Part shown: positions 1-6,000 of the stretch, in pieces
Layout of the letters: each line of letters starts with the position of its first letter
Position numbering within the stretch: the first letter of the stretch is position 1
Source of the DNA: Chlamydiia bacterium
GTDB lineage: Bacteria > Chlamydiota > Chlamydiia > Chlamydiales > Parachlamydiaceae
Reading direction: 5' to 3'
DNA: 24,208 nucleotides
NCBI GenBank assembly: GCA_038257035.1
Contig: JBBSJT010000022.1
Span: 1 to 24,208, forward strand
Made by a program: the position numbers

Positions 1-3000
1 AAGTCAATCGTTTTTCGTGGCTTAGAAAAGAGTTTAATTTATGGTTTTTCGCGCTTTAGTGCGCTTCTCTGCGTCTCTGCGTCTCTGCGTTGAAAAAATC
101 ATATACGTTTAAATAAGTTTTTTAACAGCATACTCTTAATTTTTCTTTAATTTTTTCAGTTTGAAGTAGCATCAGTATATACATGATTCTAATTCAACTT
201 GTGACATCAAGTTATCTTTGCGAGGAGGTTAGAGGGGGAACCATGTGAAGTAGAGCGAAAGCACGCCCATGACAATCAGCAAACCACCTGCAAGCTCATT
301 AATCCGATGTACAGCCTTTGCATTGATGGTAAAGAGCATCGTGGCAAGAATAAGAATCAACCACCAAGCCAAAGATCCTATAAAAACACCTGCAGAAATA
401 ACAAAAGCTGTAATAAAATCGTATTCTAGGGAGTCAAGGCCAAGAGCTGCAAATATCCCTGCAAAGCTAAAAATAGTTAAGGGATTTGTGATAGTGACGG
501 TAAACATGATAAAAAAAATATGGGTCAAACCCCTTTCAATTTTTTTAGGCCCACTATTTTTTTTGGTATACAGAAGATATGTCCCAAAACCCATCAGGAT
601 AATAGAACCGAGGGTTTGAATCCACGTTTCATGAGATTTGATAAAGTCTAACAAAATTGCGATTCCAAGAAATGCAACAAAGGATGCAATGGCATCAGCA
701 ACAGCAATCCCAAGACCTGCTGCCACGCCAGATGCTTTTCCTTGAACCAAAATATAGCGCAGGCAAAGCATTCCGACAGCCCCCATAGGCATGCAGATAA
801 TTAAACCGATCAGAAATCCTTCCCCAAGTAAACTTAACATGAAGCCATATTAAAGGATTAAAAATTTTAAAGTCCAAGCAAAAGATAGCACAGCTGCAAT
901 TACTATCAGGTAACCGCTAATTTTGTTCAATTTTTTTGCCGCAGAACTTTTGATTTTTCCCAAGAAATATGAAGAACTTGAAGAAACCATTATCCACCAA
1001 CTGATCGATCCCGCAAACACACCCATCGCTAAATGACCAATTGCAATGGGATCGTTTTCTAATGTGTCGATCCCCAAAGCAGTAAAAATGGCGACAAAAC
1101 TAAGAAGAGTCAAAGGATTTGTGAATGTAAGGATGAACATCATTAAAAAGACGAAAAAATAGCTTTTTTGAACGACAGCTTTTTCTTTTTCTTCTTTTTT
1201 TAAAGAAGAATTAATCGTGATAAGTCCAAAATAAAAGAGGAATAAGGAGCCAATTAATTTTAACCAAATATGATTGTCTTCAATAAAGCTAGTTAAGGTT
1301 GCAAGACCTATTGCTGTTAATGCACCGCAAGAAGCTTCGGCAAATGCAATACCAAGACCTGAAGCTATACCAAAACTTCTACCGCGGACAACAGAATATC
1401 GCAAGCAAAGAATGCCTGTTGGCCCCATTGGAATGGAAAGAGATAGCCCAATTAGGGATCCTTTAAGCAATAAGAATGGTAACATTTTGCAACTCTTTAT
1501 TGTAAGGCGATCTATATAATTAATTTTAATAGTATCAGTTATTTTCTTTAAAATCAAGCTAAATGATCTGACTTCCATGAGTTGTCTCCTTAGCAACTAC
1601 ATTAATTTTATTTCTTAAAACAGGTGTATTGCTAAAAAAGAAACATTAATTTAAAAAGAAAAATATGAATACAATATACTTAAAAAAAATTTATCTGACT
1701 CTTCTTTTAGCATCTGTAACTTTTGTACAAGCAGAAGAACTTGTCACACCACTTGGACTTCCAAAAGTACCTTTTCCGCAGGATAATCCTTACACTAAGG
1801 AAAAGGCAGAACTTGGAAGACGCCTCTATTTTGATCCTTGTTTGTCAGGGAACAAAGAAATCTCATGCGCAACCTGCCACGCTTTAGATCGTGCTTTTGC
1901 CGATCCAAACCCTGTTTCCATTGGAATTTTAGGAAGGAGCGGATCGCGTCATGCACCAACCGTAATCAATGCTGCATACAATCGTTTGCAATTTTGGGAT
2001 GGAAGGTCAACCTCCTTGGAGGATCAAGCAAAAGGTCCGATTGCAAACCATAATGAAATGTCTTTGTCGACAGATCCTGAGGTATCCTATGCTGAATGTC
2101 AAAAAAGAATCAAAGAACAAAAAGATTACTTGAAAATGTTCAAAGATGTTTTTGGAAATGAAGAGTGCAGTATGGATCAAGTAGCTCAGGCAATTGCAAC
2201 TTTTGAGAGGACTATATTGTCCGGTAATTCCCCCTACGATCGTTTCAAAAAGGGCGATAAAACAGCTATGACTGAAGAGCAAATTAACGGATATAAAGTT
2301 TTTAAGCGAGTGGGTTGTGAAAATTGCCATGCCGAACCTTTATTTACGGATGGACGCTTTTTAAACATTGGTGTTGGAATGGATGCAGTAAAACCCGATC
2401 TTGGTAGATTTGAAATTACCAAAGATGAAAAAGATTGGGGCGCCTTTAAGGTGCCAACATTGAGGGAATGTTCAAAATCCTATCCATACATGCATGACGG
2501 TTGTCATAAAACGCTTGAGGAAGTTATCGATTATTACGATAAAGGCGGAATTGCCAACAAAAATCTTCATCCTTTGATGAAACCTTTGCATTTAAGCGAT
2601 CAGGACAAAAAAGCATTGAAGGCATTCCTGGAAGCACTAAACGGTGAAGGCTGGCAACACATCAAGAGCTAAAGGTTTTTATTCGAAAATTATCATGTTG
2701 GAGTAGAACGTACGGAAATAGGGGTTGAAAAGTTCCAAAAGATAGAATATAATCCGAAGCAAAAACTACAAAAGAGACTCCTCATGGACAGAATTTTATC
2801 ATCGGAATTAAAGAATCACCAAGACAAAGAGGTGATGGTGCGTGGCTGGCTAAATAATATACGTGCCATTGGCAAAGTGAGTTTTTTAATTTTACGAGAT
2901 AGAAACGGCCTGATCCAGGTCGTCATCAGCGACAAGGAAGAATTTAAAAAAGTAAAGGATATGCAACCCGGCACTATTTTGCAGATTATTGGCAAGGTTG

Positions 3001-6000
3001 CTGTTTCTACAGAGGCGGAACTTGGGGTTGAAATGATCGACCCAAAAATCACTGTAGAAGTGCCCATTAAAGAAGTGCCGCTCATTGAATTTTACAAACC
3101 TGAAATTAATTCCGACTTGGAATTTATTTTAGATAATCGACCAATCGCCTTAAGACAGCGAAAAATTCAAGCTGTTTTTAAAATTCAAGCAGAACTTGTC
3201 CACGCTTTTCGACTTTTTATGCACGATCAAATCCAAGCTGTTGAATATTTCGCCCCAAATATGATTGGAGCCTCATCTGAAGGCGGAGCTGAATTTTTTA
3301 ATGTCGATTATTTTGGGTATCCGGCAACCCTTGCACAAAGCAGTCAGCTTTATAAACAAATCATGGTGGGTGTTAACGAAAGAGTTTTTGCTCTCATGCC
3401 ATTTTTTAGAGCAGAAAATTCTCAAACGACAAGGCATTTGACCGAAGGCAAGCAATTTGAATTTGAAATGGGATTTTTTAACCATTGGCACGACATCATG
3501 GATGTTCAAGAAAATTGTATTAAGTTTATGATGAAACATCTTCATGCAACATGCGCAAAAGAAATTAAAATTCTAGACAATCAGATCATTCAAGCACCTG
3601 AAAATGTACCTTTTCCAAGAGTTACCTTTAAAGAAGCGCAAGAAATTTATTTTCAAAGAACAGGTCATGATGAGCGTGAAGAACCCGATTTAAGTCCAGC
3701 TGCCGAACGGGAGCTTTGCGCCTATGCCAGAGAGAATTTCCAAACAGACCTCATTTTTATTACCGACTGGAAAACAACGAAGCGTCCATTCTATGCCTAT
3801 CCTAACGATGAAAACCCTGAGATCAGCAACACTTTTGATTTACTTTGCGCAGGGACTGAAATTACTTCCGGAGGACAACGTCGTCACACACATGATTCGA
3901 TGTTAGAGGGGATTAAATCAAAGGCAATGAGCCCTGATGGATTCTCAGACTATTTAAGTATTTTTAAGCAAGGCATGCCCCCGCACGGTGGCTTTGGAAT
4001 GGGCTTAGAAAGATTAACAATGACGATCTTGAGATTAAAAAATATTAGAGAGACATCTCTTTTTCCGTCAGACCCTAAACGCATTGCAGGTAATCGCATT
4101 AAGGCTAAAATTTTCTACGGTTCCGAAAACATCCGTAACGAAATTATTCGTCTTTTAAAGCATTCAGAAATTGAATTTAAACACATGAGTCACGAGCCTA
4201 CTCCAACTTCTGAAGATTCAGCTGCTGTACGCGGAACAACTCTTCAAGAGGGTGTAAAGGCAATTATTTTACGTGGGAAAACAAGTAAAAAGAATTATCA
4301 GTTCAATATTCCTTCAAATTTAAAGCTCGACATGAAGGCTGTTGCTGAAGCTTGCGGTGAAAAATGTGAATTTGAAGATCCAAACGTCATTAGTGATCGC
4401 TTTGGTTTGGTTGTCGGCAGTGTTCCGCCATTTGGTCAATTGATGAATCTAGATACGTATTTTGACGAAAAGATTAAAGAATCACCAAGATCTGCTTTTA
4501 ACTGCGGTTTGGTTAAAGAATCGATCATTATGGATTCAAAAGATTTGTTTGCCCTTGTGAATCCAACCATCGGTAAATTCAGCAAGGAATAAACTTAGGT
4601 GTTAACAGCGGGTACTACCCGCTGCCTAAAGCTTATTATCCCTTTGTATTTTTAATTTCATTCGATTTTTTTCATCAAGTCAAAAAATACTTCATTAGAA
4701 ATCGGACATTCGCCCCTATTTTTGTTTTGTTTAACCGAAGGATACGACAGAAAAATATCAAGTGATTTTAGGTTAAACTTTTCTGTCGTTAAATCCAAGT
4801 TTTCAGAGTTTCTTAATATTTGTTCAGCTTCCCAAGCAGACGAGGATACCCAAGACAATGCTTGTAATTTTATTCTTGCCCAACTTTCCCCATTAAACAT
4901 CCTATTTTTTTCAATTATGGTATTTTCATTACTGTTAATGGGAATTTTAAATTCTGATGTAATAATTTCTTTAAAAAGGTTTGTTGTCATTAAATTCCAC
5001 TTATCATGGTAAACCATTATCCCGCACAGATCAGATTTAACCATCGAATGTTTCATGTGCGCATCATTGCAAAGTGTTTTAAAATCAAGAACAGCTTTGT
5101 CATAACATTCTTTTTTAGCTGCTTCTAGTGAGTTAAGATTGTGTATTAATTCTTTAAAAGCAGAGACTTTTACTTTATCCTTGCCAAAAGAAAAACCCTG
5201 TGTCCATCGAGCAGGCTCTAAAGTTTTATTAGTGGATAAAAGGCATGTCTTTTGCCATGGGGTAAGGTAACTACAAAGAACATTTTGAAGATCTTCAAAT
5301 TCGAACACCTTGGCAGCAATTGATGGTGTATAAGAAATTTGAACGTTAGTATTAATTGATTGCATATTACCTCACTTATTTAAAGTGAGAATATAATTAT
5401 AACAAAATATTGTTAAGATAATATAAAGAAAAGTGAATTTATAGTAGGCTTTAGTTTGCTGTAACGAATTATTATATTCTAATTTGGAGTGCTGTGCCCT
5501 GGCACAGCTTTGTTTTCAGCCTGACCTGGCAGGCTGCTAAATCGCCATTTCTTCTAACGTAATAAATTTACTAAGGAGTGATCCTACAACATAATGCAAA
5601 AGTAAAATTTGGAGTGCTGTAACAGAGTTACAGCACTCCAAATTTTACCTTTACATTACGTTATTACATCAACCCTGCATGCTATCATCTGTTAGGTCGG
5701 TCTACTTTTTAACTTTGGCTTGAATTTTCTTAAAAGGCCTTAGTTTTGTTTTTTTGCCGGGTGCAGGTTCTTTTTTTGGCGCCACCTTTGGCTTTGCAGC
5801 AGCTTTTGGTTTCGGCTTTGCGGCAGCTTTAGGGACAGCTTTTGCTTTTGGAGCAGTTTTTGCTTTTGCAGCAGCTTTTGGCTTCGCGCTTTTTGATTTG
5901 GAGTTCACATTTGCTTTTGAAATTGCTGATTTTGCAGATTTGGCTTTAGGAACTTCGTCAAAATCCTCTTCATCGTCTTCATCTTCATCATCATCAAAAC

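Follow-up and report, generated by a model that had tools for sequence, protein, structure and literature searches.

Why would the only aspartyl-tRNA synthetase (AspRS) of a bacterium carry a domain of the tRNA deacylase type, and on what would that domain act? The question is raised by a gene in the window, a 24,208-nt stretch of contig JBBSJT010000022.1 (assembly GCA_038257035.1, Chlamydiia bacterium, family Parachlamydiaceae). AspRS is, to our knowledge, an enzyme class not known to proofread, and our literature search found no paper on an AspRS with a fused tRNA-deacylase domain.

A fused domain on the only AspRS

The AspRS-deacylase fusion that an earlier note had described at 2784-4592 on the forward strand is real, as the open reading frame, Pfam and NCBIfam agree. 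Its parts are as follows.

2784..4592, + strand: whole gene, a fusion of archaeal-type AspRS with an INS-superfamily (YbaK/ProX-fold) deacylase domain; ATG start, 602 aa plus stop
2832..3053, + strand: OB-fold anticodon-binding domain, aa 17-90 (PF01336, tRNA_anti-codon, 48.9 bits)
3120..4073, + strand: class IIb catalytic core, aa 113-430, without a GAD insertion (PF00152, tRNA-synt_2, 236 bits)
4074..4148, + strand: linker, aa 431-455, strongly conserved in the orthologue alignment
4104..4589, + strand: deacylase domain as analysed, aa 441-602 (PF04073; the Pfam tRNA_edit match is aa 470-589, nt 4191-4550)
4257..4259, + strand: codon of Lys492, which stands where the INS superfamily has its conserved catalytic lysine (HMMER alignment to YbaK 2dxa)
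4416..4430, + strand: GXXXP loop G545-S-V-P-P549, followed by F550-G551 and aligned with GGISP of YbaK

The catalytic core covers positions 3-307 of the 308 of the PF00152 profile in one stretch, and the GAD domain (PF02938) had no match anywhere in the window's genome. The whole protein scores 456 bits with the aspartate--tRNA(Asn) ligase model NF003483 (cut-off 353) and 379 bits with TIGR00458 (cut-off 368). The best PDB sequence match of the synthetase part (residues 3-434) is Thermus thermophilus AspRS2 (1n9w, E = 2.9e-90; also 3kfu), an archaeal-type non-discriminating AspRS in a bacterium. AspRS2 has 422 aa, ends without a further domain and depends on a stable transamidosome, whereas the window's enzyme has the appended domain; like AspRS2, it is presumably non-discriminating. 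In the PDB alignments, N24 faces H in AspRS2 and W in the T. kodakarensis enzyme, and E79 faces P and K, respectively; of the 27 orthologues, 25 share N24, and position 79 is variable.

We found 26 full-length orthologues (597-610 aa) with 69-80% identity to the window's protein, and mean column identity across 27 full-length orthologues is 79%. In the linker, I434, A435, R438, K440, A441, F444, G446, E448, I450, R451, N452, E453 and I454 are invariant in all 27. The AF2 confidence is low in region 426-445, and the full-length AF2 model (pTM 0.47) is too poor to place both active sites on one tRNA end.

The window's genome (95.8% complete) contains four class IIb matches: LysRS (C7), the fusion gene, AsnRS (C101; 644.6 bits on the asnS profile) and an EpmA-like frame (C17). 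The fusion gene is thus the sole AspRS found in this genome, in agreement with the earlier note.

The appended domain and its relatives

The C-terminal domain matches PF04073 with 65.8 bits (cut-off 25.5) and is the only match to this family (tRNA_edit) in the window's genome. Its AF2 model, built from alignment A2, has a pLDDT of 96 and a pTM of 0.90, and Foldseek superimposes it on 2cx5, 1vki, 1wdv, 1dbu, 2dxa and 3op6 with TM scores of 0.74-0.83. The domain family has the motif H470-E-P-T-P-T-S-E-D-S-A480...R483. Lys492 is the K of a VKAII stretch; aligned by HMMER with E. coli YbaK (2dxa), it faces K46, which we take to be the catalytic lysine of YbaK. Lys492 is invariant in the 114 fused copies read and in all 30 rows of alignment A2, which settles a check that had been left pending. 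A catalytic role of the conserved lysine in the INS superfamily is described in PMC11286415. In the GXXXP loop, G545 is found in 113 of 114 fused copies, and P548, P549 and G551 in 114 of 114. Judged by these residues, the appended domain seems to be a functional deacylase.

A PDB sequence search with the domain alone ranks 2dxa best (1.2e-6), as previously reported, followed by 3op6 and 2cx5. The bit scores with profile A2 are 98.0 for E. coli YeaK, 79.3 for 3op6, 53.0 for 2cx5 (ProXp-x), 51.3 for YbaK and 28.2 for ProXp-ala, the most distant solved relative. In hhalign comparisons with the domain family, YeaK (E = 3.5e-23, full length) precedes YbaK (E = 1.3e-10). By these profile comparisons, the nearest characterised relative is YeaK, also known as ProXp-ST1, a free-standing Ser/Thr-tRNA deacylase of the same fold class, rather than YbaK or ProXp-ala. 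Both YeaK and the fused domain have the motifs HE...E...RGT...G.KAL, PPF and AFNAG...S. However, YeaK is a separate protein that works in trans on many tRNAs, whereas the domain in the window is tethered to AspRS; the two are only about 25% identical, and the domain is at best a tentative member of the ProXp-ST1 cluster. Substrates differ between INS families as distant as this, and of the nine INS clusters the domain's clade may fall in one of the uncharacterised ProXp-7, -8 or -9.

Two other relatives deserve mention. Legionella pneumophila lpg1207 (3OP6) is, among solved structures, the one that the family profile matches best by sequence (E = 2.4e-21, full length), and it has the PPFG loop in common with the domain; it is free-standing, and although its structure is solved it is uncharacterised (a whole-word literature search for 3OP6 found no paper). 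YbaK (Cys-tRNA(Pro) deacylase; 2dxa, 1dbu) shares the fold, the lysine and the GXXXP loop, but the domain scores only 51-55 bits against the 153-bit cut-off of the YbaK_EbsC NCBIfam equivalog, and YbaK ranks below YeaK, 3op6 and 2cx5 with profile A2.

Distribution in Chlamydiales

We searched 401 genomes sampled from the order and a family sample of 61 genomes (38 with the fusion and 23 without). The domain occurs at 53-78% identity in 115 of the 401 genomes; the earlier estimate of about a quarter of genomes holds, although the identity range is wider than the 53-70% given then. The open frame has 583-719 aa in 107 of the 115 and is shorter in eight, mostly at contig ends and once interrupted by a stop. 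In the family sample, each of the 38 close copies of the archaeal-type AspRS is either fused or truncated at a contig end. The sole other archaeal-type match (G419; 41% identity, a 455-aa frame with a TGA) is unfused, and that genome is contaminated. A GAD-bearing bacterial-type AspRS is additionally present in 25 of the 38 fusion genomes, so the fusion as sole AspRS is not general; a second, bacterial-type AspRS is also part of the Thermus set-up described in PMC2330236. The bacterial-type enzyme is found in 21 of the 23 genomes without the fusion, none of which has a close domain copy (at least 53% identity). Some fusion-less genomes have distant free-standing tRNA_edit genes (G261, G237, G343, G351 and G384 among the matches listed), and others have no tRNA_edit match at all (e.g., G066, G090, G169 and G253). 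Decay of the gene can be followed within one genus, where it is intact in G305, fragmented in G269 and absent from G253 and G066.

These patterns bear on whether the domain serves AspRS or uses it as a mere carrier while editing in trans for another synthetase, most obviously a ProRS without the INS domain, by clearing Ala- or Cys-tRNA(Pro). The ProRS of the window's genome is indeed archaeal-like and lacks the INS editing domain, the fused domain is the only INS-superfamily member there, and 106 of the 115 fusion genomes have an INS-less ProRS; some free-standing relatives are even labelled Ala-tRNA(Pro) deacylase by JGI, an automatic name. Yet 141 of the 286 non-fusion genomes combine an INS-less ProRS with no tRNA_edit domain, so such a ProRS manages without a partner. 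Furthermore, among the matches listed, G055, G172 and G304 have, besides the fusion, a 572-585-aa frame with another tRNA_edit match, which we read as a ProRS that does carry INS; G083 is probably a fourth such case, and ProRS-C_1 has no match in any of the four. Loss of the archaeal-type AspRS takes the domain along and leaves no close copy as a separate gene, ProXp-ala scores lowest among the PDB matches, and the domain stays below the cut-off of the YbaK equivalog. Together with the repeated pairing with AspRS described below (two backbones and a gene overlap), this makes service to another synthetase improbable.

Even less probable, in our estimate, is chiral proofreading, in which the domain would clear D-Asp-tRNA(Asp) where a genome lacks D-aminoacyl-tRNA deacylase (DTD). 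AspRS can transfer D-Asp, no DTD was found in the window's genome, and in the family sample an intact DTD is somewhat rarer with the fusion (14/38) than without it (13/23). The two are not complementary, however: those 14 fusion genomes have both, and in 8 of the 23 genomes without the fusion DTD is absent or survives as a heavily decayed remnant. We also know of no INS-superfamily member that acts as a chiral proofreader.

Pairing with AspRS outside the order

Archaeal-type AspRS fusions with 44-53% identity and a domain of the same clade occur in Dojkabacteria and Doudnabacteria, on contigs of up to 560 kb. A second backbone, a bacterial-type AspRS without GAD (aspS_bact 503 bits; cut-off 374), is joined to PF04073 in L078 and 116 of its best 120 relatives; this fusion is found in many Patescibacteria. 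The Woesearchaeota contig L068 has the domain as a separate gene directly after a bacterial-type aspS without GAD, the stop of aspS and the start of the domain gene overlapping in ATGA; in contig L072 aspS and the domain gene are convergent neighbours. These are the only two of 31 free-standing domain loci scanned that adjoin aspS; the other 29, like free-standing clade members in many phyla, lie away from it. Every AspRS partner of the domain is GAD-less. The pairing thus supports a tie to AspRS and not to another synthetase.

The asparagine pathway and the substrate

The earlier note had proposed a cis-acting editing module directed at Asp-tRNA(Asn), which AsnRS would make unwanted. The proposal stands insofar as the domain looks like a working deacylase tied to AspRS; the argument from AsnRS does not. 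AsnRS is near-universal, in 337 of 401 genomes (111/115 with the fusion and 226/286 without), and therefore no marker of fusion genomes; this comparison, which the note had left to be made, carries no information. AsnB over cut-off does not separate the groups either (7/38 fusion genomes versus 6/23 others in the family sample). GatB is present in the window's genome, in 5 of 5 Patescibacteria genomes checked, and in all genomes looked at except one that is 68% complete. The window's genome has AsnRS and GatCAB (here searched as GatB) and no AsnA or AsnB in common with Thermus; in the Thermus/Deinococcus set-up described in PMC2330236, AsnRS, an archaeal-type AspRS and GatCAB without AsnA/AsnB make Asp-tRNA(Asn) a desired intermediate on the sole route to asparagine. 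As neither AsnA nor a true AsnB was found in the window's genome, asparagine may be made there by the indirect route alone. Finally, AsnRS was not found in three chlamydial fusion genomes (G291, G115 and G161; 96, 91 and 84% complete) or in the Doudnabacteria genome G423. In all four, the fusion is the sole AspRS and GatB is present, so Asp-tRNA(Asn) must be made and kept there, and the fused AspRS must be non-discriminating at least in these genomes.

An action on Asp-tRNA(Asn) can be envisaged on other grounds. A GAD-less non-discriminating AspRS would freely release Asp-tRNA(Asn), and the tethered domain would read the tRNA(Asn) acceptor stem, hydrolyse what GatCAB missed and thus prevent Asp at Asn codons. 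We consider this possible but doubtful. On the one hand, the synthetase part passes the aspartate--tRNA(Asn) ligase models, the four genomes above require non-discrimination, and the presence of AsnRS in nearly all fusion genomes would make loss of Asp-tRNA(Asn) affordable. According to Fischer et al. (PMC3367201), Asp-tRNA(Asn) is not retained by the archaeal-type enzyme of T. thermophilus outside the transamidosome, its release leads to misincorporation and toxicity, and the GAD domain, absent from all partners here, might trap it. On the other hand, the domain's motifs are intact in G115 and the Doudnabacteria copy, alongside an obligatory indirect pathway, and GatB is present nearly throughout. 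In the window's genome, tRNA(Asn) has U1-A72 and tRNA(Asp) G1-C72, which an acceptor-stem reader could distinguish; E. coli tRNA(Asn) has U1-A72 too, so the pair is uninformative. ProXp-ala is reported to read its tRNA in this way, but ProXp-ST1, the nearest characterised relative, accepts a broad range of tRNAs whatever their N73 (PMC11295145), whereas discrimination by tRNA body would be needed here. Motif erosion is what this reading would predict in genomes without AsnRS, and HEPTPTSEDSA is eroded in two of the four, by deletion in G161 and substitutions in G291; this is offset by erosion in seven genomes with AsnRS and by G377 and G321, genus-mates of G291 in which the motif is more eroded than in G291.

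Alternatively, the domain could be a non-hydrolytic holder of the charged 3' end that passes Asp-tRNA(Asn) to GatCAB or shields it from EF-Tu or water, like the proposed role of GAD or the stable transamidosome. This is compatible with the absence of GAD from the partner AspRS, with a linker so nearly invariant that it suggests a fixed geometry, and with the fusion genomes in which AsnRS was not found; retention of Asp-tRNA(Asn) is a safeguard described in PMC3367201 and PMC2330236. However, the characterised INS-superfamily members covered in PMC11286415 and PMC11295145 are all hydrolases, the hydrolase motifs are fully kept, and free-standing clade members lie away from aspS in many phyla, all of which makes a holder improbable.

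A proposed dedicated editing partner of AspRS

The domain thus probably acts on a product of AspRS. As to which product, our tentative preference is for tRNA(Asp) or tRNA(Asn) loaded with a non-cognate amino acid: the domain would be a hydrolytic deacylase of the YeaK/ProXp-ST1-like INS branch, recruited as a dedicated editing partner of GAD-less AspRS. Of this, hydrolysis and action on AspRS products are what we infer from the architecture, fold, kept catalytic motifs, recurrent pairing and YeaK kinship, and the substrate is named with most reserve. A non-cognate amino acid is favoured because in every cis-editing site known to us, as in YeaK, the error is told by the amino acid. Counting against it, we know of no amino acid misactivated by AspRS, identity to YeaK is low and most free-standing members are not beside aspS; the restriction to GAD-less AspRS fits action on Asp-tRNA(Asn) at least as well. 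That a sole AspRS carries an apparently active deacylase domain, and that other host-dependent microbes show this pairing too, suggests a quality-control step as yet unstudied.

In the favoured reading, the synthetase core would charge tRNA(Asp), and probably also tRNA(Asn), after which the acceptor end would reach the tethered domain. There Lys492 and the GXXXP loop would hold the aminoacyl-A76, and hydrolysis would follow where the load is wrong. That wrong load would be a non-cognate amino acid on either tRNA, ranked above Asp on tRNA(Asn). YeaK/ProXp-ST1 is reported to clear Ser- and Thr-tRNAs, including mischarged tRNA(Lys) from the sister class IIb enzyme (PMC11295145). In its way of working, the fusion would most resemble two ProRS arrangements, ProXp-ala at the N-terminus of the enzyme in lower eukaryotes and the INS domain within the bacterial one, both of them members of the same superfamily joined to a class II synthetase whose errors they correct (PMC11295145, PMC11286415); there the partner is ProRS and the domain is N-terminal or inserted, whereas in the window the partner is AspRS and the domain C-terminal.

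Domain architecture of the fused gene

The aspartyl-tRNA synthetase (AspRS) gene of the window is a single open frame, in which Pfam recognizes three parts.

Features of the fused gene
2784-4592, forward strand: single open frame of 602 aa
aa 17-90: OB anticodon-binding domain (Pfam)
aa 113-430: class IIb core (Pfam; PF00152 matched in one stretch)
aa 470-589: tRNA_edit domain, PF04073 (Pfam; 65.8 bits against a cut-off of 25.5)

The synthetase part is of the archaeal type: residues 2-434 exceed both NCBIfam equivalog cut-offs for archaeal-type aspartate--tRNA(Asn) ligase (NF003483, 456.1 against 353; TIGR00458, 379.2 against 368.4 bits), and the GAD insertion of bacterial-type AspRS is absent. 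Its best solved relative is T. thermophilus AspRS2 (1n9w, E 2.9e-90); for the single sequence of the C-terminal domain, the PDB matches come in the order 2dxa, 3op6, 2cx5. The architecture, archaeal type, domain limits, and PDB matches described in the earlier note were thus all reproduced with Pfam, NCBIfam, and PDB searches by sequence. Residues 24 and 79 of the anticodon-binding domain, which we take to be specificity determinants, were dropped as a readout of tRNA specificity, because N24 and E79 agree with neither the 1n9w nor the 1b8a pattern and position 79 is variable. The full-length AlphaFold2 model (pTM 0.47, with pLDDT below 50 in the catalytic core and linker) was unusable as a guide to domain arrangement. 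The gene neighbors in the window are housekeeping genes with no visible link to the fusion.

The genome to which the window belongs has 210 contigs and is 95.8% complete. Its class IIb matches are limited to LysRS, the fused gene, AsnRS, and an EpmA-like frame, and no GAD domain (PF02938) was found; the fused gene is therefore the only AspRS seen there. Its C-terminal domain is also the sole PF04073 match of the genome, where ProRS is an archaeal-like form without an INS domain. GatB is present, and searches of this genome for AsnA, a true AsnB, GlnRS, and DTD found none of them. Among 35 tRNAs predicted with aragorn are one tRNA(Asn) with U1-A72 and two tRNA(Asp) with G1-C72; the U1-A72 pair, considered as a mark of GatCAB use, is present but uninformative.

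Relationship of the C-terminal domain to INS families

Beyond its PF04073 match, the domain has the fold and motifs of the INS superfamily. Its AlphaFold2 model (pLDDT 96) superimposes on 2cx5, 1vki, 1wdv, 1dbu, 2dxa, and 3op6 with Foldseek TM scores of 0.74-0.83, and K492, the counterpart of the catalytic lysine, aligns with the YbaK motifs together with the loop G545-S-V-P-P549. Foldseek ranking was discarded as a subfamily classifier, since all INS families score alike.

The domain falls outside YbaK as defined by equivalog models, scoring 50.7-54.8 bits with TIGR00011 (cut-off 153.25) and 28.7-31.5 with PRK10670 (cut-off 243); free-standing relatives score likewise low with TIGR00011 (43-57 bits). 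A profile built from 12 fused and 18 free-standing sequences gave 98.0 bits for E. coli YeaK, 79.3 for 3op6 (L. pneumophila lpg1207, solved and uncharacterized), 53.0 for 2cx5 (ProXp-x), 51.3 for YbaK, and 28.2 for ProXp-ala, and hhalign returned E 3.5e-23 for YeaK versus 1.3e-10 for YbaK. On these scores, YeaK (ProXp-ST1) is the nearest characterized relative among the families compared (YeaK, ProXp-x, YbaK, and ProXp-ala), at about 25% identity. Membership in ProXp-ala was rejected: of the solved INS-superfamily structures matched by the profile, 5vxb and 1vjf score lowest, with partial matches of 28 bits (E 1.3e-5). ProXp-ST1 is described as a deacylase of Ser- and Thr-tRNA with broad tRNA specificity (PMC11295145).

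Distribution and conservation within the order

The domain was found at 53-78% identity in 115 of the 401 sampled genomes of the order, across many families; 107 of the copies lie in frames of 583-719 aa and 8 in shorter ones. The architecture is real, conserved, and widespread. The 26 full-length orthologs (597-610 aa) are 69-80% identical, with a near-invariant linker at 434-455. Among the 114 of 115 copies that could be read, K492, whose check the earlier note had left to be done, is kept in every one, as are P548, P549, and G551, and G545 is present in 113. The family motif H470-EPTPTSEDSA-R483 is looser (T473 in 104, T475 in 100, and R483 in 106 of the 114 copies), and nine copies are eroded at three or more of six motif positions.

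Several copies depart from the common form. The HEPTPTSEDSA...R motif is deleted or replaced in G161:C7:470844-471287, G377:C2:78756-79205, G321:C7:5070-5498, and G350:C60:2096-2560, in which Lys492 and the GXXXP loop stay. A further, fragmented fusion copy (G269:C1:797690-798483) has a TGA in the core piece and a domain split over frames of 154 and 106 aa. A stand-alone relative on an 82-kb contig (P0060, 174 aa, 52% identity) begins with a remnant of the linker motif, FFYGG.N...EI, and may be a split or mis-called form. Fusions 66-74% identical to that of the window also occur on contigs labeled Legionella, Gammaproteobacteria, Bdellovibrionales, Verrucomicrobiota, and Dojkabacteria (loci L081, L095, L108, and L111, also L100 and L116); since they group within the chlamydial clade, binning errors or recent transfers are the probable explanation.

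Association of the domain with AspRS

In the 61 genomes of the family sample, a close archaeal-type AspRS core is present in 38, and every copy is fused or cut by contig ends. The sole other archaeal-type match in this sample is a 455-aa frame with a TGA (41% identity) in the contaminated genome G419. A GAD-bearing bacterial-type AspRS accompanies the fusion in 25 of the 38 genomes and is absent from 13, six of which are at least 90% complete, including the window's own genome and its genus-mate G128. The fusion is therefore the only AspRS of this genome, as the earlier note stated, but in general it is not. The usual state of fusion genomes resembles that of Thermus, with bacterial and archaeal-type enzymes side by side, from which the window's genome differs in having one AspRS. 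The bacterial-type enzyme is present in 21 of the 23 non-fusion genomes of the family sample, and none of the 23 retains the domain in a closely related form; some of them have free-standing, distantly related tRNA_edit genes, and others lack tRNA_edit genes altogether. One genus contains three states: both enzymes in G305, an intact bacterial enzyme together with a decaying fusion in G269, and the bacterial enzyme alone in G253 and G066.

Beyond Chlamydiota, one genome per species was scanned with free-standing relatives as queries, which yielded 80 loci, 45 fused and 35 free-standing. Archaeal-type fusions at 44-53% identity lie on contigs of Dojkabacteria and Doudnabacteria that reach 560 kb. 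Locus L078, labeled Saccharibacteria, joins the same domain to a different backbone, a bacterial-type AspRS without a GAD match (503 bits with aspS_bact, cut-off 374, split over two stretches). This architecture recurs in 116 of its best 120 relatives, which are annotated as aspartate--tRNA ligase of Dojkabacteria, WS6, Beckwithbacteria, and other Patescibacteria. Proteins of 331-1054 aa matching the domain at E <= 1e-5 number 1,047, and the best 120 of these 1,047 all have the fused architecture. Free-standing members occur in Planctomycetota, Saprospiraceae, Myxococcota, Chlorobiales, Patescibacteria, and a few archaea. Their neighbors were scanned at 31 loci, with four near-duplicates left out, and two of the 31 adjoin aspS: on a Woesearchaeota contig (L068), the ATGA that closes a GAD-less bacterial-type aspS of 452 aa also starts the free-standing domain gene, and at L072 the two genes are convergent neighbors.

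In a domain tree of 81 sequences (FastTree, midpoint root), all fused domains group together (support 0.90) with free-standing Patescibacteria forms as their sister group (0.88), and the L068 domain sits in the other main branch. Support for the archaeal-type subset is 0.15, so that the tree is compatible both with one fusion followed by a backbone swap and with two fusions.

The domain is thus tied to AspRS on several independent lines, and it probably works on a product of this enzyme. We had at first slightly favored ProRS as the client, because ProRS lacks an INS domain here; the counts and the recurrent pairing with AspRS led us to reject it. An INS-less ProRS is present in 318 of the 401 genomes, and 141 of the 286 non-fusion genomes have one without any tRNA_edit domain. 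A second tRNA_edit match accompanies the fusion in 35 of 115 genomes, and in G055, G172, G304, and probably G083 it lies in a frame of 572-585 aa, which we take to be an INS-bearing ProRS.

Candidate substrates

The earlier note proposed that the domain hydrolyzes Asp-tRNA(Asn), unwanted because AsnRS exists. AsnRS turned out to be near-universal in the order, occurring in 337 of the 401 genomes (111 of the 115 fusion genomes and 226 of the 286 others), so its co-occurrence with the fusion, a comparison the note had left to be made, is uninformative and the stated reason falls away. A separate point in favor of this substrate is that GAD is absent from every partner AspRS: according to Fischer et al., GAD might serve to trap Asp-tRNA(Asn), which archaeal-type non-discriminating AspRS releases (PMC3367201). 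Gene content speaks against it. In G291, G115, and G161 (96, 91, and 84% complete; three families), the class IIb set consists of LysRS, the fusion, and an EpmA-like frame; AsnRS and bacterial-type AspRS were not found in these three genomes, and GatB is present in all of them, in G291 only as a 260-aa fragment. The Doudnabacteria genome G423 has the same content. In these four genomes the fused enzyme has to supply the charged tRNA(Asn), and this product has to persist. Both G115 and the Doudnabacteria copy have an intact domain. The window's own genome has AsnRS, so charging of both tRNA(Asn) and tRNA(Asp) is not required there.

We give Asp-tRNA(Asn) a modest chance as substrate and rank it second. 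A non-cognate amino acid attached by AspRS is the reading we favor, at somewhat short of an even chance, and the remaining candidates have smaller chances.

Other genomic correlates were not informative. The domain motif is eroded in G161 and G291 and likewise in seven genomes with AsnRS; the comparison of erosion with AsnRS absence (2 of 4 versus 7 of 110 genomes) is confounded by lineage (genus g165) and its sample is too small. Complementarity with asparagine synthetase was rejected, as AsnB exceeds its cut-off in 7 of 38 fusion and 6 of 23 other genomes of the family sample; the AsnA search covered the window's own genome only. Nor was complementarity with DTD found in the family sample, where DTD was not detected in 28 of 61 genomes. 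Decaying DTD genes were seen in four genomes, with multiple stops in G066:C50:11048-11398 and G253:C1:2559299-2559559, one TGA in G237:C133:17824-18219, and a split in two in G409:C2:65466-66063.

Implications

AspRS is a textbook case of a synthetase that needs no proofreading. To our knowledge, the synthetases established as carriers of editing domains are those for Ile, Leu, Val, Thr, Ala, Phe, and Pro, a list without AspRS, and we found no paper on an AspRS-YbaK fusion in the searchable literature, a scope outside which subscription journals lie. Contrary to that list, AspRS with a tRNA_edit domain is common, and the second backbone is frequent in Patescibacteria. Tentatively, and with considerable doubt about the picture as a whole, these observations might be joined as follows: GAD-less AspRS would make a harmful error, and host-dependent Chlamydiota, Patescibacteria, and DPANN would have repeatedly recruited a YeaK-like clade as its corrector, fused to two AspRS backbones or encoded by a translationally coupled gene; the GAD domain of typical bacterial AspRS may perform equivalent quality control. 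If the domain edits, it would reveal that Asp/Asn decoding has an unrecognized fidelity problem, supply a testable client for the uncharacterized YeaK-like clade, to which the solved lpg1207 belongs, and provide a handle on GAD function. The fusion also bears on translation accuracy in reduced, host-dependent genomes.

Additional observations

A 527-aa frame of the window's genome (L007:607-2187; contig C76:2730-4310 of G000) has tRNA-synt_2b as its sole Pfam match (67 bits, residues 299-508), with no N-terminal or anticodon-binding domain recognized by Pfam, and may be a ThrRS-like paralog; the ordinary ThrRS is found elsewhere, as a fragment with which contig C54 begins. The window itself holds two further items of note.

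5702-6931, reverse strand: 409-aa protein with a UPF0158 domain (residues 10-166, 257 bits), then a long acidic stretch and a Lys/Ala/Pro-rich histone H1-like tail
229-1596, reverse strand: tandem pair of LysE-type translocator genes (203 and 248 aa), located upstream of the gene for a di-haem cytochrome c peroxidase (1665-2672)
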